Positions 1,951-49,781 of a stretch of DNA of 54,260 nt are shown in pieces; position 1 is the stretch's first letter; the number at the start of each line of letters is the position of its first letter. Source of the stretch: a virus (taxonomy: Duplodnaviria > Caudoviricetes); IMG/VR virus record IMGVR_UViG_3300036861_000225, positions 1-54,260 of that record; one strand, given 5' to 3'. The notes beneath the pieces were generated by a model. It did no database searches. It saw nothing but the letters and a program-made list of their open reading frames with translations, and was not told the origin of the DNA. The position numbers were made by a program, and so were the translations under genes.

Positions 1951-1987
1951 TTGGCGTTCGCTCTCCCAAACTGCTACATTTCCCGCC
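1951..1987 (+). promoter_or_regulatory. Sigma70-type promoter giving a probable leaderless mRNA
   Basis: TTGGCG-18 nt-TACATT, 7 nt, then ATG at 1988; no SD. Confidence 0.6.
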
Positions 1988-2293
1988 ATGTCCACGAACC
2001 TAATCCGACTCGAAAGTGACGACCCGCACACTGCGGGCGTGCTCATTCGCTTCGATTCGGGCGCTGCAAAGACAGTCTCATGGCGCGCGGATCAGGTGAT
2101 CTCGCCCGCGCTCGACGCCGCGAAGGAGTACACCGCAGCAGTCATCGATGCCCTGGTGAAAGAGAACCGCGAGGCCGACGTGCGCAACACGAATTGGGTG
2201 AGCGTGACGGCCGCAATGCACAAGTGCATCCGCGATTTCAACGGCAAGCTGCACGCACTGGAGAACGAGCGTCATGCCGCGACTCTCCAATGA
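1988..2293 (+). CDS. Hypothetical protein (MSTNLIRLES...)
   Basis: In-frame ATG in ORF 1844..2293 right after the promoter; overlaps the TerS start. Confidence 0.7.
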   Translation: MSTNLIRLESDDPHTAGVLIRFDSGAAKTVSWRADQVISPALDAAKEYTAAVIDALVKENREADVRNTNWVSVTAAMHKCIRDFNGKLHALENERHAATLQ

Positions 2294-2834
2294 GGCGCAC
2301 GAGACCTTCGCCCAGCACTTCGTGCAGTGGCGCCACTTCGGCAAGGCAGCCGAAGCGGCAGGCAGCACCGCGGAGAACCTGTCGAGCGCGGGGATCTCGC
2401 TGTACGAGCGCCCCGACGTTTACGCACGTGTCCAAGAGCTGACGGAGCAAAAGCTCAAGCCTTTGAAGATGGACAGCGCGCGGTTGATGACCGAGATCGG
2501 CCGTATGTCCACGGTCGACTATGCGAGTTTCTATCACCCGGATGGCAGTCAGAAGGCACCGCACGAGTTGACGCCAGCGCAGAGCGCGTGCGTGCGTGGC
2601 ACTGACCGCAGTGGCCGCTATCAGTTCTGGGACAAGATCGCGCCAGTCACGATCCTCGCGAAGCACTTCAAGATCATTGGCGAGGAAGGCGACGGCGTGA
2701 ACGCTCTCGCGTCCGCGCTCGCGAATCGTCTGGACAGCGCGCGGCGCCGCATCGAGCCGGGAGAGCCCGAGCCCGTGCGCGTGGTCGACTCGTCTGAGCC
2801 CGAACCACAACCCGAAGAGGAACAGCTGTGGTGA
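2274..2834 (+). CDS. terS: Terminase small subunit
   Basis: N-terminal HTH pattern (ETFAQHFV...KAAEAAG...LYERPDVYARVQEL); upstream of TerL. Confidence 0.8.
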   Translation: MPRLSNEAHETFAQHFVQWRHFGKAAEAAGSTAENLSSAGISLYERPDVYARVQELTEQKLKPLKMDSARLMTEIGRMSTVDYASFYHPDGSQKAPHELTPAQSACVRGTDRSGRYQFWDKIAPVTILAKHFKIIGEEGDGVNALASALANRLDSARRRIEPGEPEPVRVVDSSEPEPQPEEEQLW

Positions 2835-2983
2835 CCAAAGCGCAATTCGAGCGCTCGCGCTTCGATGTCGAGCCCTTGGGCTCGAAGGAAGGCGACAAGC
2901 GCGACACGGCCGCGGACAAGCGCCAGCTTGCCGCGATGAAGAAGGCAACCGGCCGCACGCCGCGGCGAAAGGCAAAGCGATGA
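2831..2983 (+). CDS. Small basic protein, 50 aa (MTKAQFERSRFDVEP...)
   Basis: GTGA and ATGA overlaps with both neighbours. Confidence 0.65.
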   Translation: MTKAQFERSRFDVEPLGSKEGDKRDTAADKRQLAAMKKATGRTPRRKAKR

Positions 2984-3255
2984 ACAACGCAGGCAACAGC
3001 ACGCACAAGGCGCGCGCCATCGATCCCAAGCAGTTCCGCAACCTCGCGACGGGCATCGGCCAATGCTCGGCCGAGAGCGAGCTCACGGGCGCGCGCCGCG
3101 CCCAGCGAGCCGCGGATTGCGCACCGGCCGCGCAGCGCGCGGTGCTCGACCCGAGCTACCCGAGCCCGGGCGAGCAGGCGAAGCGCTGGACCCCGGCGCC
3201 GGCGCAGGAGATCGCCACTCCGGTCGTGATCGTGCCGGCAAAGGGTCGCGGGTGA
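2980..3255 (+). CDS. Hypothetical protein, 91 aa
   Basis: ATGA coupling; fills the operon. Confidence 0.65.
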   Translation: MNNAGNSTHKARAIDPKQFRNLATGIGQCSAESELTGARRAQRAADCAPAAQRAVLDPSYPSPGEQAKRWTPAPAQEIATPVVIVPAKGRG

Positions 3256-3259
3256 GCGT

Positions 3260-3778
3260 ATGACCGAAGCCGAAGCGCTCACCGCGATCGACAAGGCGGC
3301 CGAGCACGCAGCTTCGGCTTTCCGGCGCGCGGGAGGCTTCGCGCCCGTGCACTTGAGCTGGCAGGATCTGCGACAGGCCGCGCGCCTTGCCGCGATCATG
3401 GCTATGCAGCGCGCGGACACGAGCTACACCCCGAACGAGCGCGAAGCCTACCTTGCGCGCTGCGCGCTCGGCGGCATCCAGGATGCGTGCTGGCGCACGC
3501 GGGCCGCGGGCCGCGCGCTCAACGCAGCGGGGCCAGCAACTGAGCTGACCGAGCCGGCGCACTGGGACACGCCCGAGAGCTGGGCCATCGTGGCGCAAGC
3601 CTGCGAAGCAATCGCCGCGATGCCGCATCCATTCCCGCTGATCGTCCGGCTGACCCTGACCGGCGCCACGTCCAGCGAGATCGCGAAGGCGCTCAACCTG
3701 ACCACGGGCCGCATCGCGCAGCTGCGCGGCGAACTCGCGGGCAAGCTCAACAAGTACCTGAAAGGGATTCCGACATGA
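3260..3778 (+). CDS. Sigma70-family (FliA/ECF-like) minimal sigma factor, regions 2 and 4
   Basis: Region 2-like QDLRQAARLAAIMAMQRAD...EAYLARCALGGIQD; region 4 HTH SEIAKALNLTTGRIAQL. Confidence 0.7.
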   Translation: MTEAEALTAIDKAAEHAASAFRRAGGFAPVHLSWQDLRQAARLAAIMAMQRADTSYTPNEREAYLARCALGGIQDACWRTRAAGRALNAAGPATELTEPAHWDTPESWAIVAQACEAIAAMPHPFPLIVRLTLTGATSSEIAKALNLTTGRIAQLRGELAGKLNKYLKGIPT

Positions 3779-4194
3779 AGACCGCTGCCAGACTGGCGCT
3801 CTCGTGCATCCTCGCGCTGCTTGCGCTGAGCCTGCTGGTGCTGGGTCTTCAGGTGCGGGCCGCGCTCGCTGCCACGAACACCGACGCGCCGCCGCTGTGT
3901 CTGCCGGCGCCAATCGGTGCGGGCGGCGTGGCGCGCGTGGGCGTGTCGGCCAACGGGCAATGGATCTGGTGGGCGTGCCGACGAGCTGACAACTCGGTAC
4001 AGATGGTCCGCTACCTTGGCACGCGAGCCGTGACACTGCGCGCGGTCGGCGACAGGTTCGACACGATCTTGCGCAGCAGCGACCCGCTCGCCGCGGCACA
4101 GACCGCGCACCGGCGCTACGCCACTGTGTCGGCCACCGACCCCTCGCTCGCAGCTGTGTACGCCGACTACATCGCGAGCCTGAGCCTGCCCTGA
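3775..4194 (+). CDS. Exported or membrane-anchored protein, 139 aa
   Basis: Basic N-terminus plus long hydrophobic helix; overlaps both neighbours. Confidence 0.65.
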   Translation: MKTAARLALSCILALLALSLLVLGLQVRAALAATNTDAPPLCLPAPIGAGGVARVGVSANGQWIWWACRRADNSVQMVRYLGTRAVTLRAVGDRFDTILRSSDPLAAAQTAHRRYATVSATDPSLAAVYADYIASLSLP

Positions 4195-5837: not shown

Positions 5838-5847
5838 CGGAGCGCAC

Positions 5848-6027: not shown

Positions 6028-6039
6028 GGGCGGGCTTTC

Positions 6040-6076
6040 TTGTGCCTGAGCGAGTGCTCGCTTACACTCCCGCTTC
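6040..6076 (+). promoter_or_regulatory. Leaderless promoter of portal with operator-like palindrome
   Basis: TTGTGC-17-TACACT, 8 nt, ATG 6077; GAGC-GAGT-GCTC at 6048..6059. Confidence 0.65.
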
Positions 6077-8278
6077 ATGGCTAACCCGCTCGTCCGCCAG
6101 CTTGGGCTACAGGCAATCCTTCACCGCGACGCCGCGGCTGCGCCCGAGCCGCAGGCGATCGACGAGACAAGCAGCATGTCGGCGCTCGCGAGCCACGTGC
6201 GCGCGGCGTGGGGCCGGAACAAGCTCAGCAAGGAGCGCGTCAGCCTGAAGTTGCTCGACTGCCTGCGCGCGCGCCGCGGCGTCTACAGCCCGGCGCAGCT
6301 CCAGCAGATGATGAGCAACGGCGGGGGCATGAACATCGTTTGGGCCGACCTGACCGAGACCAAGTGCCGCGCCGCGTCGGCGTGGATTCGGGAGATCGTG
6401 CTGCCCGTGGGCGAACAGCCGTGGGGCATCGACCCGACTCCGCTGCCTGACCTGCCGATGCAGCTCAAGAAGTCCATCGTCACCAAGGCGCTGGAGCAGG
6501 CCAAGCAGACCATGATCCAGGCGGCGCAGGCCAGTGCCCCGCAGGAGCCGGACCCGAACGCGCCGCCCGGCGCCCCGCCGCCTCCGAGCCCAACCACGAT
6601 GACGCCGGGCGAGTTCCGTGATCTCGTGCTCCAGCTCGGCGAGAAGCTGCGCGACGAGGCCGAGCGCACCGTGAAGAAGATCGCGGCCACGCGCGCCAAG
6701 CGCATGGAAAAGCAGATCGCGGATCGGCTCGCGCAGGGCGGCTACGCGCAGGCGATGGATGCGTTCGTGGAGGACTTCTGCACCTACCCCGCAGCCATCC
6801 TCAAGGGGCCGATCTACACGCGCCACAAGGCGCTGAAGTGGGCGGACGGGTGGAACCCCGAGGTGTCGAACAACCCGGCGCAGACGTGGAGTCACGTCAG
6901 CCCGTTCGACGCCTATCCGGCCGCCGCGAGCCGCAGCCCACAGGAAGGCGACTTCATCGAGCGCATTCGCTTCCGCCGCGACGAACTGTTCGACCTCAAG
7001 GGCTTGCCCGACTACAAGGACGAGCAGATCGACGAGGCGCTGCGCGACTACTCGGGCGGCCACCTCGAGGGCTGGCTGTGGACCGAGGCCGAACGGCAGC
7101 GGCTGGAGCAGGAGACCATGTACATGTGGCTCTCCCCGCCGGGCGTGATCGACGCGCTCAACTACTGGGGCGGCGTGCCCGGCTGGAAGCTCAAGAGCTG
7201 GGGCGTGCAAGGCAACGCGAAGACGGGCGAGCTCGAAGACACCCGCGACTACGAGTGCAATGTGCTCATCTGCGGCAAGTACATCCTGTACGCGGCGCTG
7301 AACCCGGATCCGCTCGACCAGCGCCCGTACCGCAAGGCGTGCTACGACGAGATCCCCGGCGCCTTCTGGGGCCGCAGCATCCCCGATCTCGCGGGCACGC
7401 ACCAGAAAATGTGCAATGGCATCGCCTGCGCGCTGGCCGACAACCTCGCGATGGCGAGCGGGCCGATGGTGTGGGTGCACGCCGATCGCTTCGCCGATGG
7501 TGAGAGCACGATCGACATTTTCCCGTGGAAGACGTGGCAACTGAAGAGCGATCCGACGCAGGGCGCGAATCCCGGCATCGGCTTCTTCCAGGCGGACGAC
7601 CGCAGCGGCCCCCTGATGGCGACCTACGAGCAGTGGGAGCGCCGCGCGGACGACGCGACGGGCATCCCGCGCTACACCTACGGCAACGAGCAGGCCGGCG
7701 GCAGTGCCGACACGGCCACCGGCCTGAGCATGCTGATGAACAACGCAGCGAAAGGGCTGCGCCGCGCGATCTCGAACATCGACATCAACGTGATCGCGCC
7801 GACGATCGAGCAGACGTTCACCAACGAGATGCTCTACAACCCAGACGACTCGATCAAGGGCGACTGCATCACCGTGCCGCGCGGCGCCGCGGCGATCCTG
7901 ATCAAGGAATCGGCGCAGCAGCGGCGCACGCAGTTCCTCGGGATGACGGGCAACCCGATCGACATGCAGATCATCGGGCTCAAGGGCCGCGCGGCGTTGC
8001 TGCGCGAGACCGCAAGCGCGATGGAGCTGCCGGTCGACGAGATCGTGCCGTCCGAAGAGGAAATGGAAAAGAAGGAAGCCGAGCAGGCTCAGCAGGCTCA
8101 GCAAGCCCAGCAGGCCCAAGCGCAGGGCATGCAGGCGAACGAGCAGGCCATCGCGCAGCGCGAGTCGCAGGGCCGGCAAGAGGCGCTGATCGCCGACATC
8201 GTGAAGCAGGTGATCGCCGCGCAAGCGAAGCCGCAGCCGGCCGCTGCTGCGCCGCAGCGCCAACTCGCCGCTGCTTGA
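6077..8278 (+). CDS. Portal protein (podovirus type, 733 aa)
   Basis: Position after TerL; FWGRSIPDL, ADNLAMASGP, TATGLSMLMNNA motifs; Q/A-rich C-terminal coiled coil. Confidence 0.9.
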   Translation: MANPLVRQLGLQAILHRDAAAAPEPQAIDETSSMSALASHVRAAWGRNKLSKERVSLKLLDCLRARRGVYSPAQLQQMMSNGGGMNIVWADLTETKCRAASAWIREIVLPVGEQPWGIDPTPLPDLPMQLKKSIVTKALEQAKQTMIQAAQASAPQEPDPNAPPGAPPPPSPTTMTPGEFRDLVLQLGEKLRDEAERTVKKIAATRAKRMEKQIADRLAQGGYAQAMDAFVEDFCTYPAAILKGPIYTRHKALKWADGWNPEVSNNPAQTWSHVSPFDAYPAAASRSPQEGDFIERIRFRRDELFDLKGLPDYKDEQIDEALRDYSGGHLEGWLWTEAERQRLEQETMYMWLSPPGVIDALNYWGGVPGWKLKSWGVQGNAKTGELEDTRDYECNVLICGKYILYAALNPDPLDQRPYRKACYDEIPGAFWGRSIPDLAGTHQKMCNGIACALADNLAMASGPMVWVHADRFADGESTIDIFPWKTWQLKSDPTQGANPGIGFFQADDRSGPLMATYEQWERRADDATGIPRYTYGNEQAGGSADTATGLSMLMNNAAKGLRRAISNIDINVIAPTIEQTFTNEMLYNPDDSIKGDCITVPRGAAAILIKESAQQRRTQFLGMTGNPIDMQIIGLKGRAALLRETASAMELPVDEIVPSEEEMEKKEAEQAQQAQQAQQAQAQGMQANEQAIAQRESQGRQEALIADIVKQVIAAQAKPQPAAAAPQRQLAAA

Positions 8279-8311
8279 CGGTGAGCGTGCGCTCACGTTA
8301 CAGTCGCCCGC
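8275..8311 (+). promoter_or_regulatory. Leaderless promoter with perfect palindrome in spacer
   Basis: TTGACG-18-TACAGT, 7 nt, ATG 8312; GTGAGCG-TG-CGCTCAC at 8281..8296. Confidence 0.75.
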
Positions 8312-8584
8312 ATGCGGTTGAGTGAGCCCCAACTCCTGTTCTTGGCGCGATTCGCGAAGTCGCCCGAAGGGAAGGAATTCACCGATCTGCTGCGAGCCGA
8401 GCTCGCCGAAGTGGAGAAGGCATTGCGCACCCAGACCGGGGAAGAGCTGTACCGGCAACAAGGGCACGCGCAGCGGCTGGACAAGCTGATTGCCGACATC
8501 ACCGACGCGAGCGCCAAGCTCACCCGCAACCAGTCAGCGATGACGCCTCGACGGTTTGCGTTCACTGACGGACCCGCCCTGTAG
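8312..8584 (+). CDS. Small helical head-module protein between portal and scaffold
   Basis: 90 aa with LYRQQG motif typical of the small gene at this position. Confidence 0.75.
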   Translation: MRLSEPQLLFLARFAKSPEGKEFTDLLRAELAEVEKALRTQTGEELYRQQGHAQRLDKLIADITDASAKLTRNQSAMTPRRFAFTDGPAL

Positions 8585-8637
8585 GCATCCGCGAAAACCC
8601 GATTCCCAGACAAGAACCCTGGATCGCGGAGACCCAA

Positions 8638-9621: not shown

Positions 9622-9659
9622 GCGCGGCCCCTGGCTCTACCCCCTTCAGGAGTTCCATC

Positions 9660-10697
9660 ATGCTCAAGAAGTTCACGCGCGCCATCGGCGCGTTCCTGGC
9701 CGGCGTCGCCCTCAAGGCGAACGACGCACTGTTCAGCTACATGGGCCGCACCGGCCTGATCGCCTTCGCGGGCGTGCCGCGCGCCTCGGGCGTGCCGGAC
9801 TACGGCCCGAGCGGTACGATCAACTTCGACCCGGAGATCTACTCGGGCAAGCTCGTCGAGAAGTTCTACAAGACGACCGTGTTCGGCGAGATCGCCTCGA
9901 CCGACTACGAGGGCGAGATCGCGGGCTTCGGCGCGCAGGTCAAGATCCGCACCATCCCGACCGTGGTCGTCAGCGACTACGTGATCGGCGCGGGCCTCAC
10001 CCCGCAGTACCCGGCGAACAACAGCGTCACGCTGGCGATCGACCAAGCCAAGAGCTTCGCCGTTGCGCTGTCGACCGTGGACAGCCGCCAGTCCGATCTG
10101 GATCTGGCCGACGTCTTCGCGAACGATGGCAGCATTCAGCTGCGCATCGCCGCGGATGCCGACCTGCTGGAGACCATCCCGGCCGACGTGAGCGCCGACA
10201 ACAGCGGTTCGACCGCCGGCGCCGACTCGAACGACATCAACCTCGGCACGGCCGCCGCTCCGCTCTCCGTGACGAAAGACACGGTGGTGCAGCTGATCAC
10301 GAACATGGGTCAGGTGCTCGACGAGCAGAACGTGTCGGACGAAGGTCGCTGGCTGGTGGTGCCGCCCTGGTTCATCAACCTGATCAAGAACTCGGACCTG
10401 AAGATCGCTTCGCTGGCCGGTGACGGGGTTTCGATCCTGCGCAACGGCAAGGTGGGCGAGATCGACCGGTTCACGATCTACCAAAGCCGCAACGTGCTCA
10501 CGCAGGCCACTCCCGGCCCGGCGTCACACATCGTCTTCGGCCACAGCGCCGGCCTGACGTTCGCGGCCCAGATCGTCGAGTGCCAGATGATCGACAACCC
10601 GTCGGACTTCGGCTACATCATCCGCGGCCTGATGGTCTTCGGTTTCGAGGTGATCGAGCCGAAGTACCTGGGCACGGCCATCGTCAAGCGCGGCTGA
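9660..10697 (+). CDS. Major capsid protein
   Basis: PEIYSGKLVEKFYKTTVFGEIASTDYEGEI, LDEQNV...GRWLVVPP, GEIDRFTIYQS; AGGAG SD; strongly biased codons. Confidence 0.93.
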   Translation: MLKKFTRAIGAFLAGVALKANDALFSYMGRTGLIAFAGVPRASGVPDYGPSGTINFDPEIYSGKLVEKFYKTTVFGEIASTDYEGEIAGFGAQVKIRTIPTVVVSDYVIGAGLTPQYPANNSVTLAIDQAKSFAVALSTVDSRQSDLDLADVFANDGSIQLRIAADADLLETIPADVSADNSGSTAGADSNDINLGTAAAPLSVTKDTVVQLITNMGQVLDEQNVSDEGRWLVVPPWFINLIKNSDLKIASLAGDGVSILRNGKVGEIDRFTIYQSRNVLTQATPGPASHIVFGHSAGLTFAAQIVECQMIDNPSDFGYIIRGLMVFGFEVIEPKYLGTAIVKRG

Positions 10698-10757
10698 TCG
10701 CAGTAGGATACGGCTTGCGCAAGTGAGCCCTTCCACTCACCCCACGAAGGAGTTTTC

Positions 10758-10969: not shown

Positions 10970-11000
10970 AGAACCCCGCTTCGGCGGGGTTCTTCGTTGT
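10970..11000 (+). terminator. Intrinsic terminator after the capsid genes
   Basis: AGAACCCCGC-TTCG-GCGGGGTTCT plus T-rich tail. Confidence 0.8.
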
Positions 11001-11034
11001 GGACGGTGAGCAAGTGCGCACATACAATCGTGCG
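11000..11034 (+). promoter_or_regulatory. Leaderless promoter restarting transcription after the terminator
   Basis: TGGACG-17-TACAAT, 6 nt, ATG 11035; GTGAGCAAGTGCGCAC at 11006..11021. Confidence 0.7.
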
Positions 11035-11526
11035 ATGTTGACCGCTGAGCGTCTTCGCGAGCTGCTGACCTACGATCCCGAAACTGGGATCTTCACGTGG
11101 CGCTGCGATCGAGGCGGAAAAGCACGCAAAGGAACCCGCGCCGGATCGGTCAGTGACGACGGATACGCAAGGATCGGGGTTGACGGAAAGAGCTATCTTG
11201 CGCACCGACTCGCTTGGCTATACACCCACGGCAGCTGGCCGGCGGCCGAGATCGATCATCGCCTAGGCGCGAAAGCCGACAACAGAATCCATGAGCTGCG
11301 TGAAGCGACGCACGCGCAGAATCTGCAAAACCAGCGCCGCGCGCGTTCAGATAGTCGCAGCGGATTGCTGGGAGTTTCCCGACGTGGCAATCGGTGGCGG
11401 GCCACGATAAAGCACCAGGGCCGATACCGGCACCTCGGGAGCTTTGACGCGAAAGAAGCCGCTCACGAGTTCTATCTCCTCGCAAAAGAGATGGTTCACC
11501 CTTTCGGCGCAAGCCAAGGAGACTGA
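11035..11526 (+). CDS. HNH homing endonuclease with AP2-like C-terminus (copy 1)
   Basis: LRELLTYDPETGIFTW, AHRLAW, IDH...DNRIHELREAT..QN, HLGSF. Confidence 0.92.
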   Translation: MLTAERLRELLTYDPETGIFTWRCDRGGKARKGTRAGSVSDDGYARIGVDGKSYLAHRLAWLYTHGSWPAAEIDHRLGAKADNRIHELREATHAQNLQNQRRARSDSRSGLLGVSRRGNRWRATIKHQGRYRHLGSFDAKEAAHEFYLLAKEMVHPFGASQGD

Positions 11527-11936: not shown

Positions 11937-12584
11937 ATGACCATCCAGGCGGCCACGATCATCGACGAAGCGGCGACGCTCCTGCTCGACGCGCTGAACA
12001 ACCGCACGTGGCCGCTCCCCGAACTCTTGGGCTACTTCAACGAGGCGTTGCGCGCGACGGCCTTCGTGAAGCCCGACATGTACACCGTGCAGACGAGCTT
12101 CACGCCCGTCGCTGGAGTGCTCCAGAACCTGCCCAGTGACGGCATCGCGCTGCTCGACATCACTCGCAACCTCACCGGCCGCAACCGCGTCGTGACGCAG
12201 GTCGACGAGGGCCTGCTCGAAGAAGCGAACCGCTTCTGGCCGGCGGCGACCCAACAGGCCGAAGTCGAGCACTTCACCGCGGACCCGCGCAACCCGCGCC
12301 GGTTCCGGGTCTTCCCGCCGGCAAACGGCGCGGGCAGCATCGAGATCCTGTACGGCGCCGTGCCGCCGCAGGTCAACTACGACGACGAAGACCTGTCGGT
12401 GCCGGACAGCTTCCAGACGATCTTGCTCAACTTCGTGCTGAGCCGTGCGTATTCGAAGAACAGCAAGAAGCAGGATCTCGCGAAGTCCAGCTACTACATG
12501 CAGCAGTGGGCCGCGGCGCTCGGGCTCAAGTCCCAAGCGCAGGTTGCCGTCGCGCCGCACGTGGCGCAGAGCCCGGGGGTCTGA
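11937..12584 (+). CDS. Head-tail adaptor (DUF6682-like)
   Basis: LLLD...RTWPLPELLGYFNEA, FRVFPPA, LLNFVLSRAYSK motifs; position. Confidence 0.75.
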   Translation: MTIQAATIIDEAATLLLDALNNRTWPLPELLGYFNEALRATAFVKPDMYTVQTSFTPVAGVLQNLPSDGIALLDITRNLTGRNRVVTQVDEGLLEEANRFWPAATQQAEVEHFTADPRNPRRFRVFPPANGAGSIEILYGAVPPQVNYDDEDLSVPDSFQTILLNFVLSRAYSKNSKKQDLAKSSYYMQQWAAALGLKSQAQVAVAPHVAQSPGV

Positions 12585-12586
12585 TC

Positions 12587-13096
12587 ATGCTCACGCAAGC
12601 CCGGCTCAAAGAACTGCTGCACTACGACCCCGAAACTGGGGGGTTCACGTGGCGCGCAGATCGGCGCGGGCACCGCAACATCCGCGCCGGTGACGTAGCG
12701 GGTCACAAGACGCCCAAAGGGTACGTGGTCATCGGCATCGACGGAAAGGTGTACAAGGCGCACCGGCTCGCGTGGCTATATCTCTACGGCGCATGGCCGG
12801 CAGAAGGCATCGATCACCGTTTCGGAGTTTCCGCCGGCGATGGCGTCGGCAATCTTCGTGAAGCTACGCATGCACAGAACGCGCACAATCAGCACCGTGC
12901 GCAGCGCAACAACCGTTCGGGGCTTTTGGGCGCGAGTTGGTATGGGCGCGACGGTACTTGGCGGGCCAAGATCGTAGTTGGCGGCAAGCAGAAACACCTA
13001 GGCTGCTTCGCGACGCCTGAAGCGGCGCACGAGTTCTACCTATTGGCGAAGGCCATGTTGCATCCCTTCAGTTCACTAGCAGGGAGCGCGTCATAA
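12587..13096 (+). CDS. HNH homing endonuclease with AP2-like C-terminus (copy 2)
   Basis: MLTQARLKELLHYDPETG, AHRLAWLY, IDH, NLREATHAQN. Confidence 0.92.
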   Translation: MLTQARLKELLHYDPETGGFTWRADRRGHRNIRAGDVAGHKTPKGYVVIGIDGKVYKAHRLAWLYLYGAWPAEGIDHRFGVSAGDGVGNLREATHAQNAHNQHRAQRNNRSGLLGASWYGRDGTWRAKIVVGGKQKHLGCFATPEAAHEFYLLAKAMLHPFSSLAGSAS

Positions 13097-23207: not shown

Positions 23208-23728
23208 AGCCCAGTGAACGTCGAATGCTTCTCCAGCATGCTCGCTTGCTTGAGCTGCTTCACTATGACCCGGAAACAGGGCAGTTCACGTGGCGCGTTG
23301 ATCCCAACCCGATCAAGAAGGGGCGGACGCAGGCCGGTGACGTCGCGGGCACGCTGACTTCTTGCGGCTACGTGTCGATCAACATCCAGGGTACGCACTA
23401 CTACGCGCACCGGCTGGCGGTCTTCTACGTGACCGGGGAGTGGCCTTCACATGAGATCGACCACAAGAACGGGAAACGTGCGGATAACTGCTGGCTGAAT
23501 CTGCGCCACGCGACAGAAAAGCAGCAGCGTGAGAACGCAACGCCCCAACGACGGTCCCAGAGCGGGGTCCGCGGTGTCTACTGGTTCAAGCGAACGCAGC
23601 AATGGCGAGCAGTCATCAACCACGATAAGCGGGCGTTCTCGCTCGGCTACCATGACTCTCTTCTCGACGCCGTAGCGGCGCGGCTGCGTGCTGAACGCGC
23701 GCTGTTCACCCACCATCGGGAGCACTGA
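23204..23728 (+). CDS. HNH homing endonuclease with AP2-like C-terminus (copy 3)
   Basis: LLHYDPETGQFTW, AHRLA, IDHKNGKRADNCWLNLR, SGVRGVYW. Confidence 0.92.
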   Translation: MKPSERRMLLQHARLLELLHYDPETGQFTWRVDPNPIKKGRTQAGDVAGTLTSCGYVSINIQGTHYYAHRLAVFYVTGEWPSHEIDHKNGKRADNCWLNLRHATEKQQRENATPQRRSQSGVRGVYWFKRTQQWRAVINHDKRAFSLGYHDSLLDAVAARLRAERALFTHHREH

Positions 23729-36131: not shown

Positions 36132-36893
36132 TCATGCCAGTAGCCTCCTAAATGCTTCGCCGCTCTCGACTTCGGACATGCTCCACTGAGCCCACGCCAA
36201 GCGCCGGAACATCGCGAGCCGCATGTCGTCGCGGCGGAGCGGCCCCTTCTTGAACTCACCTAGCGAATGGCACGCCAGCGCGCCGATCCACGATTGCATG
36301 CCGTAGAACACAGGCACGCCCATCATCAAAGCCTTGATCGCGGCGCCCGAGCTCCACGTCGCAACGCTCGATGCGCGCGCCAAGTCCTCTTCCAGCGTCG
36401 GGCCGTCCTTGTTCGTGCCGGGGTGCCGACGGATGCGCCCCTTGGTCGTGCTCACCGCGAGATTGAGCCAGCCGTCCGGTGCGCGCAGGCCGGGCTCGCC
36501 GATGCCGCGCTGCGCGAGGATGACGCATTCGCCGCCGGGCTTGCGCCACGGCGCGAGATTCACGCCCCACGAGTCCCAGCGCTCGGGGCCGCCATTCGGC
36601 CAACGGCCGGCGCCGTTGTGGTGGTTGTGCGCGATCGCGAACGACTGCTCGCCACGCCACTCCTTGCCCAGATAGCCGTTCTCCACGACGAGCACCTTCG
36701 CCTTCGCGGCCTCGAACTCGCGAGCGCGGGAGTGGCCTTCGCCCATGCGGTTCCACGTAACTATGAGGTCTTTAGAACTGGGATTCGCTACCATCCGGTC
36801 TGTGGGCGTGTAGCCAACGGCGCGCAGCCCCGCCATGAAGGCCTCGCGGCGGTAATGCAGGCCCGACCGGAACAGGACGACAGCGCGGCTCAC
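36132..36893 (-). CDS. GT-B-like putative glycosyltransferase, paralogue of 34190..34969
   Basis: VENGYL, RWDSW...PWR, IRRHP, TWSSGAAIKALMMGVPVF, QWS..E..SG. Confidence 0.75.
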   Translation of the reverse strand: MSRAVVLFRSGLHYRREAFMAGLRAVGYTPTDRMVANPSSKDLIVTWNRMGEGHSRAREFEAAKAKVLVVENGYLGKEWRGEQSFAIAHNHHNGAGRWPNGGPERWDSWGVNLAPWRKPGGECVILAQRGIGEPGLRAPDGWLNLAVSTTKGRIRRHPGTNKDGPTLEEDLARASSVATWSSGAAIKALMMGVPVFYGMQSWIGALACHSLGEFKKGPLRRDDMRLAMFRRLAWAQWSMSEVESGEAFRRLLA

Positions 36894-37396
36894 AAAAGCC
36901 CCAAGGATTTGTTTGTGCGTGCGAAGGGGCCGTAAAGCCGACGTGCCGCAGAGTCATAAGCCCGTGCGGCTTTCTTGGGGTCGGCAAACACGCCCAGATG
37001 CACGGAGCTGCCCACTTGAGCGCGCCACCCATTGCGAAACTTGCTCACGCCTTTGAAGCCGCTCGTGTTCCGCGACAGGAGCCCGCGGTTCGTTAGATTT
37101 TGGGATTGGTTGGCTTCTCGGAGATTCGCGCGGTGATTTGCCTCACTGCTACCGTTTTTGTGATCGGTGTTGGTCGGCCACGTACCATGCAAATAGAATA
37201 GTGCGAGCCGGTGTGCGTAGTAGAGAACCCCATCGATGCGGATTCGAGCGTACGTCTTGCCACTGTGCCGCTTGCTCATGCACCCAGCGGTCGATCCCGC
37301 GGGGCGTTGGGGGCTTGCCGAAACGCGCCATGTGAAAACGCCGGTCTTGGGGTCATATCGGAGTACTTCACGCAAACGTGCAAACGTCAGTTTCAC
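36890..37396 (-). CDS. HNH homing endonuclease with AP2 domain (copy 4)
   Basis: LRYDPKTGVFTW, AHRLA, DHKNG...NLREA, SGFKGV, AARAYDSAA..LYGPFARTN. Confidence 0.92.
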   Translation of the reverse strand: MKLTFARLREVLRYDPKTGVFTWRVSASPQRPAGSTAGCMSKRHSGKTYARIRIDGVLYYAHRLALFYLHGTWPTNTDHKNGSSEANHRANLREANQSQNLTNRGLLSRNTSGFKGVSKFRNGWRAQVGSSVHLGVFADPKKAARAYDSAARRLYGPFARTNKSLGLL

Positions 37397-38001
37397 CCGA
37401 GTTCCTTCTCGATCGTCGACATCGGGAACCACTCCAGCGCGGACCCTGGCGTGCAGTTGAGTACTTCGCATTTGTGCTCTACGAGATCTTCCGCGAGTTT
37501 CTTGCCTTTGTGCCGCCACTCTTCAAACAATTGCGCCTGTACCAGCGGCTTCTCGTGGTCGCCGTGCCGGTGCTTCTCGCCGTTCGGCCCGAGCTTCATG
37601 TCCATGCCCAGCAGCAGGATACGCCGCGCGCTCCACAGAAACGCGAGATTGATCGCCTGAAAGCCTGAATTTCCATTGAGGTGCACCACGTTCAGGCCCA
37701 GCCCTTCGCGATTGCCGCCGCGCTGGCGGTTGAGCTGGAATCGCTCGGCCGCGCTGCCGTCTTGGGTCCACCGTTGCGACTTCGGGCACTGTGCCCTGAT
37801 GCGCGCGTGATGCACCTTCCAGAAGAGGTAGTCTCCCGCGTACACCACGTCCGCCCACGGCGCATACACGTACGCGGTGTTGACCGCGATCGTCTTGATC
37901 GGCCTATGGCACGACACCACAGCGTCGAGCTGCGCGTCGCTCAAGCTCGGGCCGGCGCAGATGACGACTGCGGTATGCGCGGACCAGTCAGGTGTTTTCA
38001 T
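37393..38001 (-). CDS. Maf/MptE (DUF115)-like, sialyltransferase-related fold protein
   Basis: AVVICAGPSL, IAVN, NSGFQAINLA, ILLLGMD, LNCTP. Confidence 0.75.
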   Translation of the reverse strand: MKTPDWSAHTAVVICAGPSLSDAQLDAVVSCHRPIKTIAVNTAYVYAPWADVVYAGDYLFWKVHHARIRAQCPKSQRWTQDGSAAERFQLNRQRGGNREGLGLNVVHLNGNSGFQAINLAFLWSARRILLLGMDMKLGPNGEKHRHGDHEKPLVQAQLFEEWRHKGKKLAEDLVEHKCEVLNCTPGSALEWFPMSTIEKELG

Positions 38002-38135
38002 CGGAGAGACAAGAGAGACAAGAGAGCGCACAGGATGGCGATGATCCCGCCGACGCGCGTGCGGGCAGTGAGAAGCCCGACGAACGAAAGCATGAACGCC
38101 ACGAATCCCAAGGCTTCGCGAAACGGTCCGTTCAT
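37998..38135 (-). CDS. Two-TM peptide, 45 aa (MNGPFREALG...)
   Basis: Read manually; overlaps both neighbours. Confidence 0.55.
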   Translation of the reverse strand: MNGPFREALGFVAFMLSFVGLLTARTRVGGIIAILCALLSLLSLR

Positions 38136-38425
38136 AACATTTCCGGGTCGCGTTCGCCGATGACTTTCAGCAGATGCGCGTTTTCGGTGCCAGTCACTCG
38201 GTAGAGTGTCAGCCCGCGGTATTGCCCATGCTGCAACACTTCAAACGTGGTGCCCTGGCTACAGCCGGCCATCAGCTCCAAGAACTTCGCATGGCCGATG
38301 AGCAGCCCCGTTGCGCGCAGCGGTTGAAGCCGCCGATCCGTGAAATCGCGCGGGTGAGGCGCGAGCGCACCGTAGCTTTCCAGCACCGCGCGCTGTTGCT
38401 CGATCTCAAGGTCGATGACGTTCAC
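38132..38425 (-). CDS. Hypothetical protein, 97 aa
   Basis: GGAGG SD, GTGA overlap. Confidence 0.65.
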   Translation of the reverse strand: MNVIDLEIEQQRAVLESYGALAPHPRDFTDRRLQPLRATGLLIGHAKFLELMAGCSQGTTFEVLQHGQYRGLTLYRVTGTENAHLLKVIGERDPEML

Positions 38426-38643
38426 GCCAAGTCCTCCAACACTTCACCATCCCATTCATACACGATCGCGTCAGGGCCATCGCCCATGCGCGCGCTCAAC
38501 GTCCCTTCACTCACGCCCGTCGGCCAGAGCGCGCCGAGAGCCGGAATCCCGTGGTCGCGTAGACACTTGAGAACGAAGATGCCGCGGTGCACGTCCTGGC
38601 CGAGATCCGCGAGCCGCGTCTTGCTGATGGTGACGGTGATCAT
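38422..38643 (-). CDS. Hypothetical protein, 73 aa
   Basis: ATGA overlap. Confidence 0.65.
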   Translation of the reverse strand: MITVTISKTRLADLGQDVHRGIFVLKCLRDHGIPALGALWPTGVSEGTLSARMGDGPDAIVYEWDGEVLEDLA

Positions 38644-39119
38644 TCGGGGACTGTAGCATTTGCTTCGCGCTCGCGCAACTCAAGTTCGAGTGCCGCGAGC
38701 AGGTTCCAGATCATTTGCGCACGGTGAAGGCAACCGGTCTGGGCGTCGACCCGTTCGCCTGTGCCGAACGAAAGCGCGTGTCGGCCGAAAGCATCCATGT
38801 ACCTCTCTTCGCCGTTCGGCACGGATGCCCACCCGTTAGGTGTGTACTTGGCCGCACCGACGGTCGTGACCTTGGCCACCTCGTCGATCGCGCGCGCGAA
38901 CCCGGCAATGCACAACCATACCCGGGTCTTTCCTGCGTCGAGTTTCGCGCCGGGCGTGTGCGCGTCGACTCCGTTAGGGTCGGCTTCGGCGAGCAGCGTG
39001 CGCGCCGGTCGGCAGGCCCGCTCATACCCATCTTTGTTCAGGCTCGGCGACCAGACAACCTCCACGTCGCCCACGACCGGGCACGGTTCGCCATCAGGCC
39101 AAGGAACCCAATCACTCAT
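38640..39119 (-). CDS. dATP/dGTP diphosphohydrolase-family (DUF5664-like) protein
   Basis: GAKLDAGK, GAAKY.PNGW, YMDAFGRH, D..TG.LH.A...WN. Confidence 0.85.
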   Translation of the reverse strand: MSDWVPWPDGEPCPVVGDVEVVWSPSLNKDGYERACRPARTLLAEADPNGVDAHTPGAKLDAGKTRVWLCIAGFARAIDEVAKVTTVGAAKYTPNGWASVPNGEERYMDAFGRHALSFGTGERVDAQTGCLHRAQMIWNLLAALELELREREANATVPE

Positions 39120-41546: not shown

Positions 41547-41851
41547 GTCGGCGGCAACCACGCATCCAACTGCGCGAGTGTGGAGATCACGAGGACCGTG
41601 CAGCCCGCCGAGTGCATGCGCTCGTGCTCGCGCGCCTGCGCGGCCGTGGGCTTGCCGTCCGGGGCCTTGGTTTCGATGAAGGGGTGTGTCCCCGCGAGGC
41701 GTGTCAACTGCGTTTCGTGCCAACCCTCGGGGAACAAGCACAGCACGTCCGGCGCGTTCCGCCGGCCCAGCCAGCTCACAGCCCGGATCTCGCCCCCATA
41801 GGCTTCGACGCGCTCTTTCAGCGCTTTTCGGATCTTGCCTTCGGCGGCCAT
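41543..41851 (-). CDS. VRR-NUC domain nuclease
   Basis: E..I...L...V...GG, APD, FIETKAP.GKPT..Q..EH; GAGGA SD. Confidence 0.9.
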   Translation of the reverse strand: MAAEGKIRKALKERVEAYGGEIRAVSWLGRRNAPDVLCLFPEGWHETQLTRLAGTHPFIETKAPDGKPTAAQAREHERMHSAGCTVLVISTLAQLDAWLPPT

Positions 41852-42180
41852 CTCGGGTTCCTCTGCTGACTCAGTTTCGAATTCTCGCTGCGGGTTTCCA
41901 GGGTCCAGTGATCGGGGTTGATGCAGAGCGTGTTGCCGCACCGGTGCTCGGTGGTCTGGGTCTCTGGATCGAGCGGTACATCATGGAACTGCTGTTCCAT
42001 TTCGCGGTGCGCGGCGACGGTCACGAGCTCGCCGTCGACGCGCTTGTTCAGGCGGCCGTAAGGCCAGCGCTTGCCGCACGTGCGGCCGGTCCATACCCAG
42101 CACCCGTTCTCGTTCTGGTCCTCGGGCTTTTCGCTGTTCGCAACGAGCCTCTGGAACATCGTCACGTACTTCTGCGCCAT
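41818..42180 (-). CDS. HNH endonuclease of the Cys-containing type (distinct from the AP2-type copies)
   Basis: GCWVWTG, YGR, AHR, HRCGNTLCINPDHW...SEN. Confidence 0.85.
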   Translation of the reverse strand: MAQKYVTMFQRLVANSEKPEDQNENGCWVWTGRTCGKRWPYGRLNKRVDGELVTVAAHREMEQQFHDVPLDPETQTTEHRCGNTLCINPDHWTLETRSENSKLSQQRNPRWPPKARSEKR

Positions 42181-42503
42181 CAGGCCGCTCGCATACGCCA
42201 CACGCTCGATCGGTGCACGCCCGTGCTCGCAGCGATCTCCCGCACGCTGCCGGCTGCGGCGCGCACTGCCTCGATCGGTCGCCCAGGTGGCAGTGCCACG
42301 GCGGGCGCATCGAGGATGCCCGCGCCCACGCCGAGCAGCACAGCATGCGGCAGCGTGGACGCGCCAAGGTTGCGCTTGATCTTCACGATCGCGTCCTCAA
42401 CGGCCGACTCGGTAATGCCCAGCAGCGGCGCGACTTGCTTGAGCCGGTTCCCTTGCGCGATGAGTGTCAGCACTTCGCGCTGGCGTTCGGTGAGCTGCCT
42501 CAT
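42180..42503 (-). CDS. LuxR-type HTH protein with a second C-terminal HTH
   Basis: LTERQREVLTLIAQG..LKQVA.LLGITESAV; SVREIAASTGVHRSSVWR. Confidence 0.8.
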   Translation of the reverse strand: MRQLTERQREVLTLIAQGNRLKQVAPLLGITESAVEDAIVKIKRNLGASTLPHAVLLGVGAGILDAPAVALPPGRPIEAVRAAAGSVREIAASTGVHRSSVWRMRAA

Positions 42504-45262: not shown

Positions 45263-45275
45263 TGCATGACCTCCT

Positions 45276-45447: not shown

Positions 45448-45455
45448 GTTGGAAG

Positions 45456-46097: not shown

Positions 46098-46152
46098 GAT
46101 GGGCTTTCCTTTCGGGTTTGTGCAAACGGCTTACGGCTTGCGGGTTGGGGAA

Positions 46153-46503
46153 CTAGAAACCGGACGGCTGGGCGACGGCGCGCGTGAGCGCCATCAACCC
46201 CTCTTGAAAGTGCGTGCGCGCGATCGCGGCCCAGCGCTCGGGCTCGGCGCGGTTCAGGCGTGCTTTCTCGGCGTGTGCGCGCTGAAACGCTGTCGGCGGG
46301 TCGCCTTCCGCAACAGTTTCAGTTTCGCCTCGATCGATGATTTCTTTCTGCGCGTACAGGTTCATGCCGGTCCGGTGCCGGACCTTCGCGATCAGTGCCT
46401 CGATCTCGTGACCCTTGGCCTTGATCTCGTTCATCAGCGCTGCCTCGGCTTCATTCAGCTGGCGATAGCCCGTGATCTTGGGTTGGGTGAAGGTTTCCAT
46501 CAT
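46153..46503 (-). CDS. acb2: Anti-CBASS Acb2-like cyclic-oligonucleotide sponge
   Basis: KITGYRQL.E.E..LMN.IK..G and AEPERW.AIARTHFQ.GLMALTRAVAQP..F match the Acb2 signature. Confidence 0.85.
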   Translation of the reverse strand: MMETFTQPKITGYRQLNEAEAALMNEIKAKGHEIEALIAKVRHRTGMNLYAQKEIIDRGETETVAEGDPPTAFQRAHAEKARLNRAEPERWAAIARTHFQEGLMALTRAVAQPSGF

Positions 46504-47804: not shown

Positions 47805-48019
47805 TGCGGTTCCCACATTCCCTCAACGGAGATCGTCGAGCCGTGCATGTATTGGATGGCTTCGCAGCCCTTGATTGCGCCGGCCTTGCGCTTGTACGCC
47901 TCGCCGCTCTCCGCGATCACGCGGCCATTGCGCGCGAAGAGGCGCCAGCGCCAGCCATCCTTGGCGCGGTACACGTCGAAGACGTACGGGAACTGCGACT
48001 TGGGGCGGGGCGGCTTCAT
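47801..48019 (-). CDS. YegP / DUF1508-family protein
   Basis: WRWRL.ARNGRVIAESGEAY. Confidence 0.85.
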   Translation of the reverse strand: MKPPRPKSQFPYVFDVYRAKDGWRWRLFARNGRVIAESGEAYKRKAGAIKGCEAIQYMHGSTISVEGMWEPQ

Positions 48020-48168
48020 TTCTTCACCTCCGCGAGCAGCAGATCGGTGAGCCGCACTGCTTCCTTCACGAGATCCGCCTCCGAAGGACCGAGCGGCTTG
48101 TTCGTGAGCCGTGCGGCGAGCAGGATCGTCGCGACGATCTGCCGCTCGTGTTGCTGGTCTTCGTTCAT
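48016..48168 (-). CDS. Hypothetical protein, 50 aa (MNEDQQHER...)
   Basis: GGAGG SD; ATGA overlaps. Confidence 0.6.
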   Translation of the reverse strand: MNEDQQHERQIVATILLAARLTNKPLGPSEADLVKEAVRLTDLLLAEVKK

Positions 48169-48311
48169 CGGGATATGCCCTCCAATGGGTGCAAATGCGA
48201 GCGCAGGCTCAGGTGCAGCGCGAAGAGGCCGCAGCACACGCGCCGGTGGTGCTCGGCCGGACTACGCAGCCCGGCACTCATCAGCGCGGATGCGAGCGGC
48301 GTCAGGTTCAC
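48165..48311 (-). CDS. Hypothetical protein, 48 aa (MNLTPLASAL...)
   Basis: Read manually; GTGA and ATGA overlaps fill the gap exactly. Confidence 0.5.
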   Translation of the reverse strand: MNLTPLASALMSAGLRSPAEHHRRVCCGLFALHLSLRSHLHPLEGISR

Positions 48312-48760
48312 GCCATCGACTCGTTGGCGTCAGCGGCGAGCTTGTCGAGCACGAGCACGAGCTCGGGGCGATCGGCCGCCTTCACGTCCTGGCCGGTCTT
48401 CACCAGTGTGCCGTACTTCTCGGCGAGCGTGGCGAAGAACGCCTTGATGCCGGTGCGGTTCGCAGCGCTGTTCGGGTTGCTCACGGCCACCATTTCGGCG
48501 ATGCGCTGACCGATCGGAGCGTAGGGCAGCTCAGCGGATTCGGTGGGCGGGGTCTCGGGCGCAGCGGGAGCCGGGGCCGGCACCGGGGCGGCAGAAGGCG
48601 GCGAAGCCGCAGGCTTGTCCGCCTTGGCAGGCTTTGGGGCCTTGGTCTCCGCGGGAGCCGGCGCGGTAGCGGCCGCCGCGGCCGCCGCGGTCTTGTCCCG
48701 GGTCAGGTACGCGATGGCTTCGTCCATGTTGGCGAAGGTGAGCTTGATCTCGACGGTCAT
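48308..48760 (-). CDS. Ala/Pro-linker protein typical upstream of DUF2800
   Basis: AAAGG SD; low-complexity linker plus small C-terminal domain. Confidence 0.75.
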   Translation of the reverse strand: MTVEIKLTFANMDEAIAYLTRDKTAAAAAAATAPAPAETKAPKPAKADKPAASPPSAAPVPAPAPAAPETPPTESAELPYAPIGQRIAEMVAVSNPNSAANRTGIKAFFATLAEKYGTLVKTGQDVKAADRPELVLVLDKLAADANESMA

Positions 48761-48975
48761 GTGTTGCCTTTCTGTTTGGCGGTGAGGAATTGGATGCGGC
48801 TGGTGAGGCTCGCGCGTTCCGAGCGCAGCCCGCCGATGTACCAGCGCAAGCAGCGCGCGTCTTCATGGCGAAGCTCAAGCATCGCGTCGGCGTAGTCGGT
48901 TTCGGTGTCCACGATTTCGTGGTCGACAAGGCGCAGCTTGAAGCGCGCGGCCCAGAGGCGCAGGGAGGTGATCAT
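48757..48975 (-). CDS. Hypothetical helical protein (MITSLRLW...)
   Basis: ATGA overlap with the downstream gene. Confidence 0.55.
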   Translation of the reverse strand: MITSLRLWAARFKLRLVDHEIVDTETDYADAMLELRHEDARCLRWYIGGLRSERASLTSRIQFLTAKQKGNT

Positions 48976-48982
48976 TGCGAAC

Positions 48983-49204
48983 TCAGCGAGCCAGCCGCAG
49001 CAGAGCATTGGCTGTAGCTGTCATTTCCATGTCTGTCCCACCCGATTCGCTGATCTCTTGCAGCGCGTCGGCCAAGCTGCGCAGCGTGTCAACGCGATTT
49101 CGCAGTAAGACGATCTTCGCGTCCGCAGCCGCTTTTGCCTTCACGGAATCGGACGATTGCCGGGCGTGACACGGCAGGGGATCGAGCAGGCTCATATCGG
49201 TCAT
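48983..49204 (-). CDS. Hypothetical protein, first gene of the leftward operon
   Basis: ATG just downstream of the promoter at 49267..49239. Confidence 0.55.
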   Translation of the reverse strand: MTDMSLLDPLPCHARQSSDSVKAKAAADAKIVLLRNRVDTLRSLADALQEISESGGTDMEMTATANALLRLAR

Positions 49205-49238
49205 ACGGTTCCCGGCTTTCGGCGTGTTGTGGGTCGGC

Positions 49239-49267
49239 AGACTAACTGCCGTATCAAATGCTGTCAA
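49239..49267 (-). promoter_or_regulatory. Strong leftward sigma70 promoter of the replication operon
   Basis: TTGACA-17 nt-TAGTCT on - strand. Confidence 0.8.
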
Positions 49268-49271
49268 GCGT

Positions 49272-49362
49272 TTTGGTTGGGCGCGCGGTTCGTGGTGCAC
49301 TAACCGGGAATCGACCACAGCATTAGCGAGGATCCATCACCGGAGCCACGCGCCCAACCAAA
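49272..49362. repeat. Perfect 14-bp inverted repeat enclosing about 63 nt
   Basis: TTTGGTTGGGCGCG (49272..49285) / CGCGCCCAACCAAA (49349..49362). Confidence 0.85.
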
Positions 49363-49368
49363 GACTCG

Positions 49369-49398
49369 AAAAAGAAGCCCGGGACCGAAGCCCCGGGC
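49369..49398 (-). terminator. Intrinsic terminator on - strand
   Basis: GCCCGGGGC-TTCG-GTCCCGGGC followed by TTCTTTTT. Confidence 0.85.
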
Positions 49399-49477
49399 CT
49401 TTGCGCTGGCAACTGCTTACCTGCGGCGTCGGGAACAAGGACAGGAGGAGGAGGAGGAGGGAGGGTTCACCCGACGC
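49369..49477 (-). ncRNA. Predicted ~109-nt sRNA with a (CCU)6 anti-Shine-Dalgarno loop
   Basis: Own promoter (49512..49484); 5' stem GCGUCGGG/CCCGACGC closing a CU-rich loop; middle hairpin; own terminator; no credible ORF. Confidence 0.7.
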
Positions 49478-49479
49478 GC

Positions 49480-49517
49480 TTGCAGTATGCACGGAGCAAG
49501 TGCTACAGTCAACGCCC
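49480..49517 (+). promoter_or_regulatory. Rightward leaderless promoter of cro, overlapping the sRNA promoter
   Basis: TTGCAG-18-TACAGT, 8 nt, ATG 49518; GAGC-AAGT-GCTA at 49494..49505. Confidence 0.65.
49484..49512 (-). promoter_or_regulatory. Leftward promoter of the sRNA
   Basis: TTGACT-17 nt-CATACT; predicted +1 near 49477 coincides with the first base of the stem. Confidence 0.7.
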
Positions 49518-49781
49518 ATGAACATGAAACTAAAGCGATTCATGCACGCCCTCACGGGCGAGCAACAGGAGCGGTTTGCGCGGCTTGCAAATACCTCGGT
49601 GGGCACGATCCGCCACTACGTGACCGGGCGCCGCGTGCCGTCGAGCTCGGCCGCGATCGCGATGGAGAAAGCTGCGGTTCGCATGAACGTGGACGGCGCG
49701 CCGGTTCTCGGGCGCCGCGACTTGTCGCCCGCGTGCAAGGGCTGCGAGTACGCCAAAGCATGCACGGAAAGGCTGGATTGA
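49518..49781 (+). CDS. Cro/YdaS-like HTH regulator with C-terminal CxxCxxxxxC
   Basis: QERFARLANTSVGTIRHYVTGRRVPS...AIAMEKA; ACKGCEYAKAC. Confidence 0.8.
   Translation: MNMKLKRFMHALTGEQQERFARLANTSVGTIRHYVTGRRVPSSSAAIAMEKAAVRMNVDGAPVLGRRDLSPACKGCEYAKACTERLD

Follow-up and report, generated by a model that had tools for sequence, protein, structure and literature searches.

The 54,260-bp IMG/VR record IMGVR_UViG_3300036861_000225, which as a whole forms the window analysed here, is a phage genome of 65% GC from an uncultured soil podophage clade. Six of its transcription units share one layout at their heads, namely a putative host sigma-70-type promoter whose -10 box ends 6-8 nucleotides (nt) before the ATG of the first gene, with no Shine-Dalgarno (SD) site in front of that ATG. 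We consider it probable, from the sequence of these sites and from their relatives, that the six promoters give leaderless first cistrons (leaders of 0 to 1-2 nt) whose translation is SD-independent, and that this is an inherited, clade-wide layout which does not depend on a candidate small RNA of the same genome. A first-pass annotation had described five of the six starts and had presented them as a possible self-exemption of the phage from its own anti-SD RNA.

The five sites described in that annotation, at ATGs 1988, 6077, 8312, 11035 and 49518, were confirmed with respect to position, TAC-type -10 box, spacing of 17-18 nt between the -35 and -10 boxes, and gap of 6-8 nt between the -10 box and the ATG. 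Unit 1 (1951-1990, + strand) consists of TTGGCG (1951-1956), 18 nt, TACATT (1975-1980), 7 nt and ATG 1988; it heads the packaging operon, in which a gene of 101 amino acids (aa) is followed by those of the small and large terminase subunits. In unit 2 (6040-6079, +), TTGTGC (6040-6045) is separated by 17 nt from TACACT (6063-6068), itself 8 nt from ATG 6077 of the portal gene. Unit 3 (8275-8314, +) is composed of TTGACG (8275-8280), 18 nt, TACAGT (8299-8304), 7 nt and ATG 8312; the portal stop codon falls inside its -35 box, and it heads a 90-aa gene, a putative scaffold gene and the major capsid gene. Unit 4 (11000-11037, +), which precedes an HNH endonuclease gene, has TGGACG (11000-11005), 17 nt, TACAAT (11023-11028), 6 nt and ATG 11035; an alternative -35 box, TTGTGG, would need a spacing of 20 nt. 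Unit 5 (49480-49520, +) comprises TTGCAG (49480-49485), 18 nt, TACAGT (49504-49509), 8 nt and ATG 49518, and heads a rightward operon encoding an 87-aa helix-turn-helix (HTH) regulator, a Lar-like protein and a primase. Units 1 and 5 head divergent intergenic regions.

A sixth unit, absent from the first-pass annotation, was found on the other strand (38641-38678, -). It is made of TTGCGC, 17 nt, TGc-TACAGT, 6 nt and ATG 38643, and its gene (38422-38643) encodes 73 aa; the promoter sits within the last part (3' end) of the gene before it, whose stop codon is overlapped by the ATG (ATGA). In units 1, 5 and 6 (ATGs 1988, 49518 and 38643), TGn directly precedes the -10 box, which we take to be the extended -10 pattern. 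Two of the gene labels given previously were upheld, portal (Pfam SU10_portal, 2.9e-9) and HNH (HNH_3, 3.5e-11). The third, 'cro' for the gene at 49518, is a loose one: this protein has only a weak HTH_3 match (1.5e-4, below the Pfam cutoff), and no match to integrase, repressor or RNA polymerase families was obtained among the 76 proteins scanned with Pfam and PHROGs.

The number of such sites far exceeds chance. The hexamer TACANT occurs 11 times in the genome, both strands included, and 6 of these 11 copies precede the ATG of a predicted gene by 6-8 nt. In 300 first-order Markov simulations of the genome, which define the chance expectation, the motif TACANT-N6-8-ATG was expected 0.64 times, with a maximum of 3, versus 6 observed. 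For the full motif, with TTG at 17-18 nt, 5 copies were observed versus 0.02 expected and a simulated maximum of 1, and a chance origin of the motif was rejected on these figures. It was also observed that TANNNT hexamers as a class are depleted genome-wide (185 observed versus 262 +/- 17 in the Markov simulations). This depletion could result from selection against stray -10 boxes or be a codon-usage effect.

None of the claimed starts has an SD, as had been proposed: no GGAG, GAGG or AGGA core is present, and the anti-SD duplex energies at the six sites range from -0.1 to +2.2 kcal/mol, values that rank with the weakest among the 77 scored gene starts. The range is shared by three starts of uncertain status (12506, 13120 and 38001). 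Directly before the last of these, the SD-less ATG 38001 of a glycosyltransferase-like gene, lies a C/T-rich direct repeat in two copies, CTCTTGTCTCT (38003-38030, -), and no -10 box was found before this ATG (-). The earlier caveat that the major capsid gene and several early genes do possess SDs was borne out, as 36 of the 77 scored starts carry a GGAG, GAGG or AGGA core, the capsid gene and many early genes included. An in-frame stop codon is located 30-39 nt upstream of 6077 (30 nt), 8312 and 38643 and no alternative start lies in between, so these three starts are not annotation choices. All six sites use ATG, versus 54 of 78 genes overall. Many downstream genes had been said to start through overlaps, and indeed, out of 77 gene junctions, 20 are 4-nt overlaps and 3 are 1-nt overlaps, i.e. 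23 in total, with 14 other overlaps. The gene map was obtained from a codon-usage caller that missed the HNH gene, the ATG of the regulator and others, hence gene counts are approximate.

Conservation was analysed in five whole or nearly whole relatives (G001 to G005) and 53 portal-region loci. In 22 of 24 non-duplicate loci, the orthologue of the 8312 gene starts 6-8 nt after a -10-like box (6 nt in 2 loci, 7 nt in 9 and 8 nt in 11), the start codon being ATG in 21 of the 22 and GTG in one. A TTG-initial hexamer, which was not a selection criterion, is present at 16-19 nt in 17 of these 22 loci, and the geometry is kept down to 39% protein identity, where spacers are no longer alignable. In the two other loci (L045 and L053), an SD replaces the -10 geometry. 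At the portal gene, an in-frame ATG with the same geometry was found in 19 of 43 non-duplicate loci, the gap being 8 nt in 18 of them and 7 nt in one; 5 of the 19 also have a possible downstream start with an SD-like core. For comparison, in each of the six genomes (the window and G001 to G005) about 1% of all ATGs pass the same test.

The remaining units could be followed in the whole genomes. Unit 1 is identical in G001, and its G002 orthologue reads TTGCAA, 18 nt, TACATT, 8 nt, ATG. Unit 5 is kept in G001 and has the form TAAAGT, 7 nt, ATG in G002 and TACACT, 6 nt, GTG in G003. The G001 version of unit 6 is TTGCGC, 17 nt, TACGAT, 6 nt, ATG. Across 36 listed sites, C makes up 167 of the bases between the box and the ATG, with 67 G, 19 A and 21 T, and it is nearly always the base that precedes the ATG. 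Transcription start choice favours a pyrimidine at -1 and a purine at +1; a C-rich gap would be expected if selection favoured transcripts that begin with the A of the ATG. The pattern of conservation is hard to explain unless the box, the length of the gap and the ATG work together.

We propose that RNA polymerase of the host, sigma-70-type, would start on the A of the AUG at the six unit heads. Counted from the end of the -10 box, the A of the start codon falls on base 7 to 9, where the C-rich gap would leave it as the favoured purine. The first cistron of each mRNA would thus have no 5' leader, or one of at most 1-2 nt, and would be translated by 70S-type initiation that needs no SD. Six transcription units would be headed in this way, for packaging, for the portal, for head assembly and capsid, for the HNH gene and those downstream, for the rightward regulator and replication operon, and for a leftward sub-operon; within each of them, downstream cistrons would rely on ordinary SD sites or on stop/start overlaps. 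Nesting promoters in or directly behind the preceding gene would save space, and would give the scaffold and capsid genes an internal promoter immediately in front.

Two further observations were counted in favour of this scheme. First, the failure to match any RNA polymerase family in the 76 proteins agrees with use of the host polymerase. Second, hairpins that may mark transcription-unit boundaries are present before unit 4 and at portal promoters of relatives. The former, the capsid-operon hairpin (10972-10998, +), has an 8-bp stem, a TTCG loop and a short T-rich tail and lies just before unit 4; it was read directly and is not listed by the terminator scan, its tail having only 4 T. The latter, terminator-like, adjoin the portal promoter in L001, L003 and L014. 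The leaderless starts proposed in the first-pass annotation are well supported as regards promoter geometry, statistics and conservation, and transcription is predicted from the sequence to begin on the AUG or no more than 2 nt away from it.

Several observations weigh against leaderless starts at these sites. Hits of a generic promoter consensus scan are no more numerous in the genome than in shuffles; the evidence for promoters is the specific geometry, not consensus strength. The gap of 7-8 nt at four of the six sites puts the first T of the box at -13 or -14, versus about -12 in PMC3160421, and leaders of 1-2 nt are therefore possible; in Caulobacter, each extra leader nucleotide approximately halves leaderless translation (PMC8459731). 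Structure at the start of the six mRNAs is not significantly weaker than in other genes, with mean folding energies of -2.35 versus -2.77 kcal/mol for the first 25 nt (p = 0.37) and of -6.45 versus -8.23 kcal/mol for the first 40 nt (p = 0.15). Among the portal loci, 24 of 43 are devoid of the geometry, 10 of them with an SD core at the nearest start and 14 unassigned. The closest relative, G001, has no unit 4, and what comes after the capsid-operon terminator there is a gene led by an SD; this absence implies that the HNH endonuclease insertion carries, or captured, a promoter of the phage's own type. Unit 6 is the weakest of the six, as its promoter is also coding, so that its conservation may reflect the protein, and coupling to the upstream gene is possible. 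Finally, efficient translation of leaderless mRNAs by the host is itself a prediction, made from the clade-wide conservation.

Some of these points would also fit a different situation, in which promoters do exist at these places but translation of the first genes depends chiefly on read-through transcripts, by termination-reinitiation or by SD-independent initiation, and the closeness of box and ATG reflects genome compaction only. Unit 3 starts at the stop codon of the portal gene, the ATG of unit 6 overlaps the stop of the gene before it (ATGA), the 7-8 nt gaps could yield short leaders, and the 5' ends are not unusually unstructured, all of which would be compatible with read-through. However, compaction alone does not account for a 6-8 nt gap in 22 of 24 and 19 of 43 loci, for the C-rich gap and the C before the ATG, or for the near-exclusive use of ATG. 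Moreover, read-through is unavailable at units 1 and 5, which lie in divergent intergenic regions, and at unit 4, which follows a hairpin. Translation from read-through transcripts therefore appears unlikely as the main route.

The spacers of units 2-5 have a sequence in common, GAGC(A/G)nGTGC (within 6046-6062, 8281-8298, 11006-11022 and 49493-49503), which is also listed at 38656-38668 (-). It belongs to perfect palindromes in units 2 and 3, of 6 bp in the former (AGCGAG-TG-CTCGCT) and of 7 bp in the latter (GTGAGCG-TG-CGCTCAC). These spacer palindromes are a candidate operator for a phage regulator, which might be the HTH protein encoded at 49518 or a sigma-region-4/LuxR-like protein (42180-42503). 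One could go further and suppose that the shared sequences are mainly binding sites for such a regulator, the match to promoters being incidental; the occurrence of the same element in four spacers and the perfect repeats in two of them would suit this idea. Yet, beyond the closest relatives (L001, L003 and L014), the palindromes are lost, and the clade as a whole keeps both boxes (-35 and -10) and the gap without them; an operator located in the spacer of a promoter is, moreover, compatible with promoter function and does not take its place. We judge this possibility highly improbable.

The proposal that the leaderless starts belong with a small RNA led us to the region upstream of unit 5. 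A candidate small RNA of about 110 nt is encoded at 49368-49478 (-) and folds (-45.2 kcal/mol, z = -3.0) into a 36-nt C/U-rich loop with CCUCC repeats on a closing stem of 8 bp, a small hairpin and, last, an 11-bp terminator with a U tail (49400-49375, -). Its putative promoter (49484-49512, -) consists of TTGACT, 17 nt and CATACT, with 9 matches of 12 to the consensus. It shares about 33 bp (49480-49512) with the regulator promoter of unit 5 (+), each -10 box overlapping the -35 box of the other, and the positions of both promoters are identical in G001. As the opposed promoters occupy the same base pairs, the divergent transcripts would come from mutually exclusive polymerase sites. In G001, one pair of the closing stem has undergone a compensatory change from U-A to C-G, and the terminator carries a G-C to G-U change on the minus strand that would be A-C on the plus strand. 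On these sequence features, the small-RNA unit looks real.

The candidate resembles the cuckoo, CcsR and alpha-r14 RNAs in having a CCUCC-rich, anti-SD-like hairpin loop followed by a terminator. Cuckoo family RNAs contain two to four adjacent hairpins, each with the loop motif CCUCCUCCC (PMC4615179); unlike them, the candidate has a single loop, of 36 nt, made of CCU repeats in which the 9-mer CCUCCUCCC does not occur as such. No Rfam family reached threshold in the genome, and a relaxed scan of 49150-49560 gave only sub-threshold matches, of which the best related one was Betaproteobacteria toxic sRNA (13.6 bits versus a cutoff of 50).

Two other elements were noted in the same intergenic region. 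A promoter-like site at 49234-49262 (-), TTGACA, 17 nt, TAGTCT, is followed by a leader of about 35 nt up to ATG 49204 (-) of the first leftward gene, and the stretch 49202-49275 is almost identical in G001; the site has the look of an early promoter with a leader, distinct from the small-RNA unit. Between this promoter and the small-RNA terminator, 49267-49365 can form a long imperfect hairpin. It may be a second structured element, as the differing G001 sequence at this place can pair end to end as well.

The distribution of the small RNA was compared with that of the leaderless layout. A tract scan of the window and of G001 to G005 found the long G-rich purine tract only in the window and in G001, and the tract is absent from the control regions of G002, G003 and G005. 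Two exact-pattern scans of IMG/VR for the small RNA returned G001 only, as did a search with the regulator protein. A covariance model, applied to 24 sources that included G002 to G005 and seven further long loci, gave nothing below E = 0.2 beyond its two training sequences; being built on two sequences, it could miss diverged analogues. In the four genomes devoid of the RNA, G002 to G005, the geometry was found at the 8312 orthologue in all four. G002 is also leaderless-type at the regulator and at the 1988 orthologue, and G003 at the regulator (with GTG) and at the portal. The presence of the layout in RNA-less relatives indicates that it predates the small RNA and does not need it.

According to the model put forward in the first-pass annotation, the anti-SD RNA would mask SD sites globally, and leaderless heads together with coupled downstream genes would let the phage escape. 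Leaderless starts being equally common in relatives that lack the RNA had been named beforehand as one finding that would speak against this two-part system, and the model failed on this point. The model has points in its favour: a plausible small-RNA unit with promoter, 8-bp stem, 36-nt CCUCC-repeat loop, strong terminator and a compensatory pair relative to G001; a small-RNA promoter that overlaps the leaderless regulator promoter base for base; 4-nt or 1-nt overlaps at 23 of 77 junctions; and, in the RNA-carrying genomes, the highest numbers of leaderless-type sites (6 in the window and 5 in G001), which come from one lineage and thus count as a single observation. In addition, the two-sequence covariance model could have missed diverged analogues of the RNA. 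Against it, the geometry is clade-wide and G002 to G005 are without the RNA by the tract scan, the exact-pattern scans and the covariance model; the RNA would also mask the GGAG-type sites at 36 of 77 phage starts, those of the capsid gene and of many early genes included; and SD use is not lower in RNA-bearing genomes, as genes with an SD core number 34 of 68 and 28 of 63 in these two, versus 16 of 54, 31 of 68, 34 of 74 and 39 of 76 in the other four. We therefore give the two-part model little credence.

A restricted version can be formulated for the window and G001, in which an old layout was co-opted as an escape from a newly acquired RNA: the overlapping promoters would act as a mutually exclusive switch, and the RNA would damp SD-led host genes and many early phage genes while the six leaderless heads were still translated. 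We regard such co-option as equally improbable. What the comparison of genomes supports, in our reading, is that the small RNA is a recent addition in one sub-lineage and that the leaderless layout is independent of it.

As to the phage itself, its best DNA-read match is a soil metagenome run (95% of sampled words; 8 DNA-type metagenome runs and no RNA run were returned), and its capsid protein has 1,455 homologues at E <= 1e-20. No GenBank phage matched the genome by blastn, and the portal tblastn matches to GenBank phages are distant (<=31% identity; Rhizobium, Roseobacter, Pelagibacter and HMO-2011-type phages); IMG/VR yielded 50 related loci with a portal identity of 47-94%. Pfam and PHROGs identified small and large terminase subunits, an SU10-type portal protein (6077-8278), SU10-type adaptors, the major capsid protein (9660-10697), tail and ejection proteins, a GH19 endolysin and an Rz-like spanin. 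The presence of the latter led us to judge the host a Gram-negative-type soil bacterium. The labels of the three metagenome-assembled contigs that carry relatives disagree (Burkholderiales, Verrucomicrobiota and Chromatiaceae) and do not point to one host. A leftward replication block encodes an exonuclease, a Gp2.5-like single-stranded DNA-binding protein, a family A polymerase and an SNF2 helicase; the rightward block encodes the 87-aa HTH protein, the Lar-like protein and a primase of VapE type. No initiation-factor-like gene was found among the 76 proteins scanned, and the genome contains no tRNA gene.

Three features of the gene content lie outside the six units as such. Five HNH-type endonuclease genes are distributed across the structural and replication modules (11035-11526, 12506-13096, 23225-23728, 36890-37519 and 41818-42201), and the lack of the 11035 copy at the matching place in G001 suggests that they are recent homing insertions. 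The gene at 46153-46503 (-) has an Acb2/Tad1 hairpin-domain match (Pfam, 1.9e-15); this is a family of anti-CBASS/anti-Thoeris nucleotide sponges, which makes the gene a candidate for counter-defence. The two ends of the record (1-60 and 54201-54260) carry the same repeat-rich sequence, within a YdcK beta-solenoid-repeat gene that runs off the end; the record thus has terminal repeats, or else its genome is circularly permuted and the ends are an overlap left by the assembly.

The layout may be compared with three known systems. The lambda cI mRNA made from PRM is a leaderless regulator message, and the phage resembles lambda in having a leaderless-type regulator gene in a divergent control region, at 49518. 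Lambda has one such gene, tied to lysogeny, whereas here six units are concerned, structural operons included, and the 76 proteins contain no integrase or repressor match. For Thermus phage phiYS40, a review (PMC3594737) describes most middle and late transcripts as leaderless and reports that infection shifts the levels of the initiation factors IF2 and IF3. This is the closest precedent for leaderless phage mRNAs. In both phages the phage's own mRNAs lack leaders, in the present case by prediction, and the programme is tied to SD-independent translation. Unlike the situation in phiYS40, only 6 of about 78 genes are involved, all of them at the heads of transcription units, about half of the genes use an SD, and the host is judged to be a Gram-negative-type soil bacterium rather than Thermus.

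The third comparison is with bacterial TA-led leaderless genes, in which TANNNT is found about 12 nt before the start codon (Zheng et al. 2011; PMC3160421); leaderless mRNAs prefer AUG (PMC8459731). Like TA-led genes (PMC3160421) and the -10-motif genes of Deinococcus (PMC12340547), the six phage genes have a TANNNT box directly upstream, no SD and a strong ATG bias. The first T of TACAnT, at -12 to -14 at the six sites, agrees with the TA-led definition. The phage genes differ from TA-led genes in the position of the box, which at four of the six sites lies 1-2 nt farther from the start codon, in having a clear -35 box, and in belonging to a phage rather than to a cellular genome.

Documented cases of leaderless phage transcripts come chiefly from Thermus phages, from lambda cI and from phages whose hosts commonly have leaderless genes. 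The present genome adds a conserved leaderless layout, predicted from sequence, that would head structural as well as regulatory operons across a large clade of uncultured soil podophages. It provides a rule for annotating starts and promoters in genomes of the clade, together with six compact promoter-to-AUG cassettes that are easily testable. With the support for a translation-hijack reading removed, the small RNA can be studied on its own merits.

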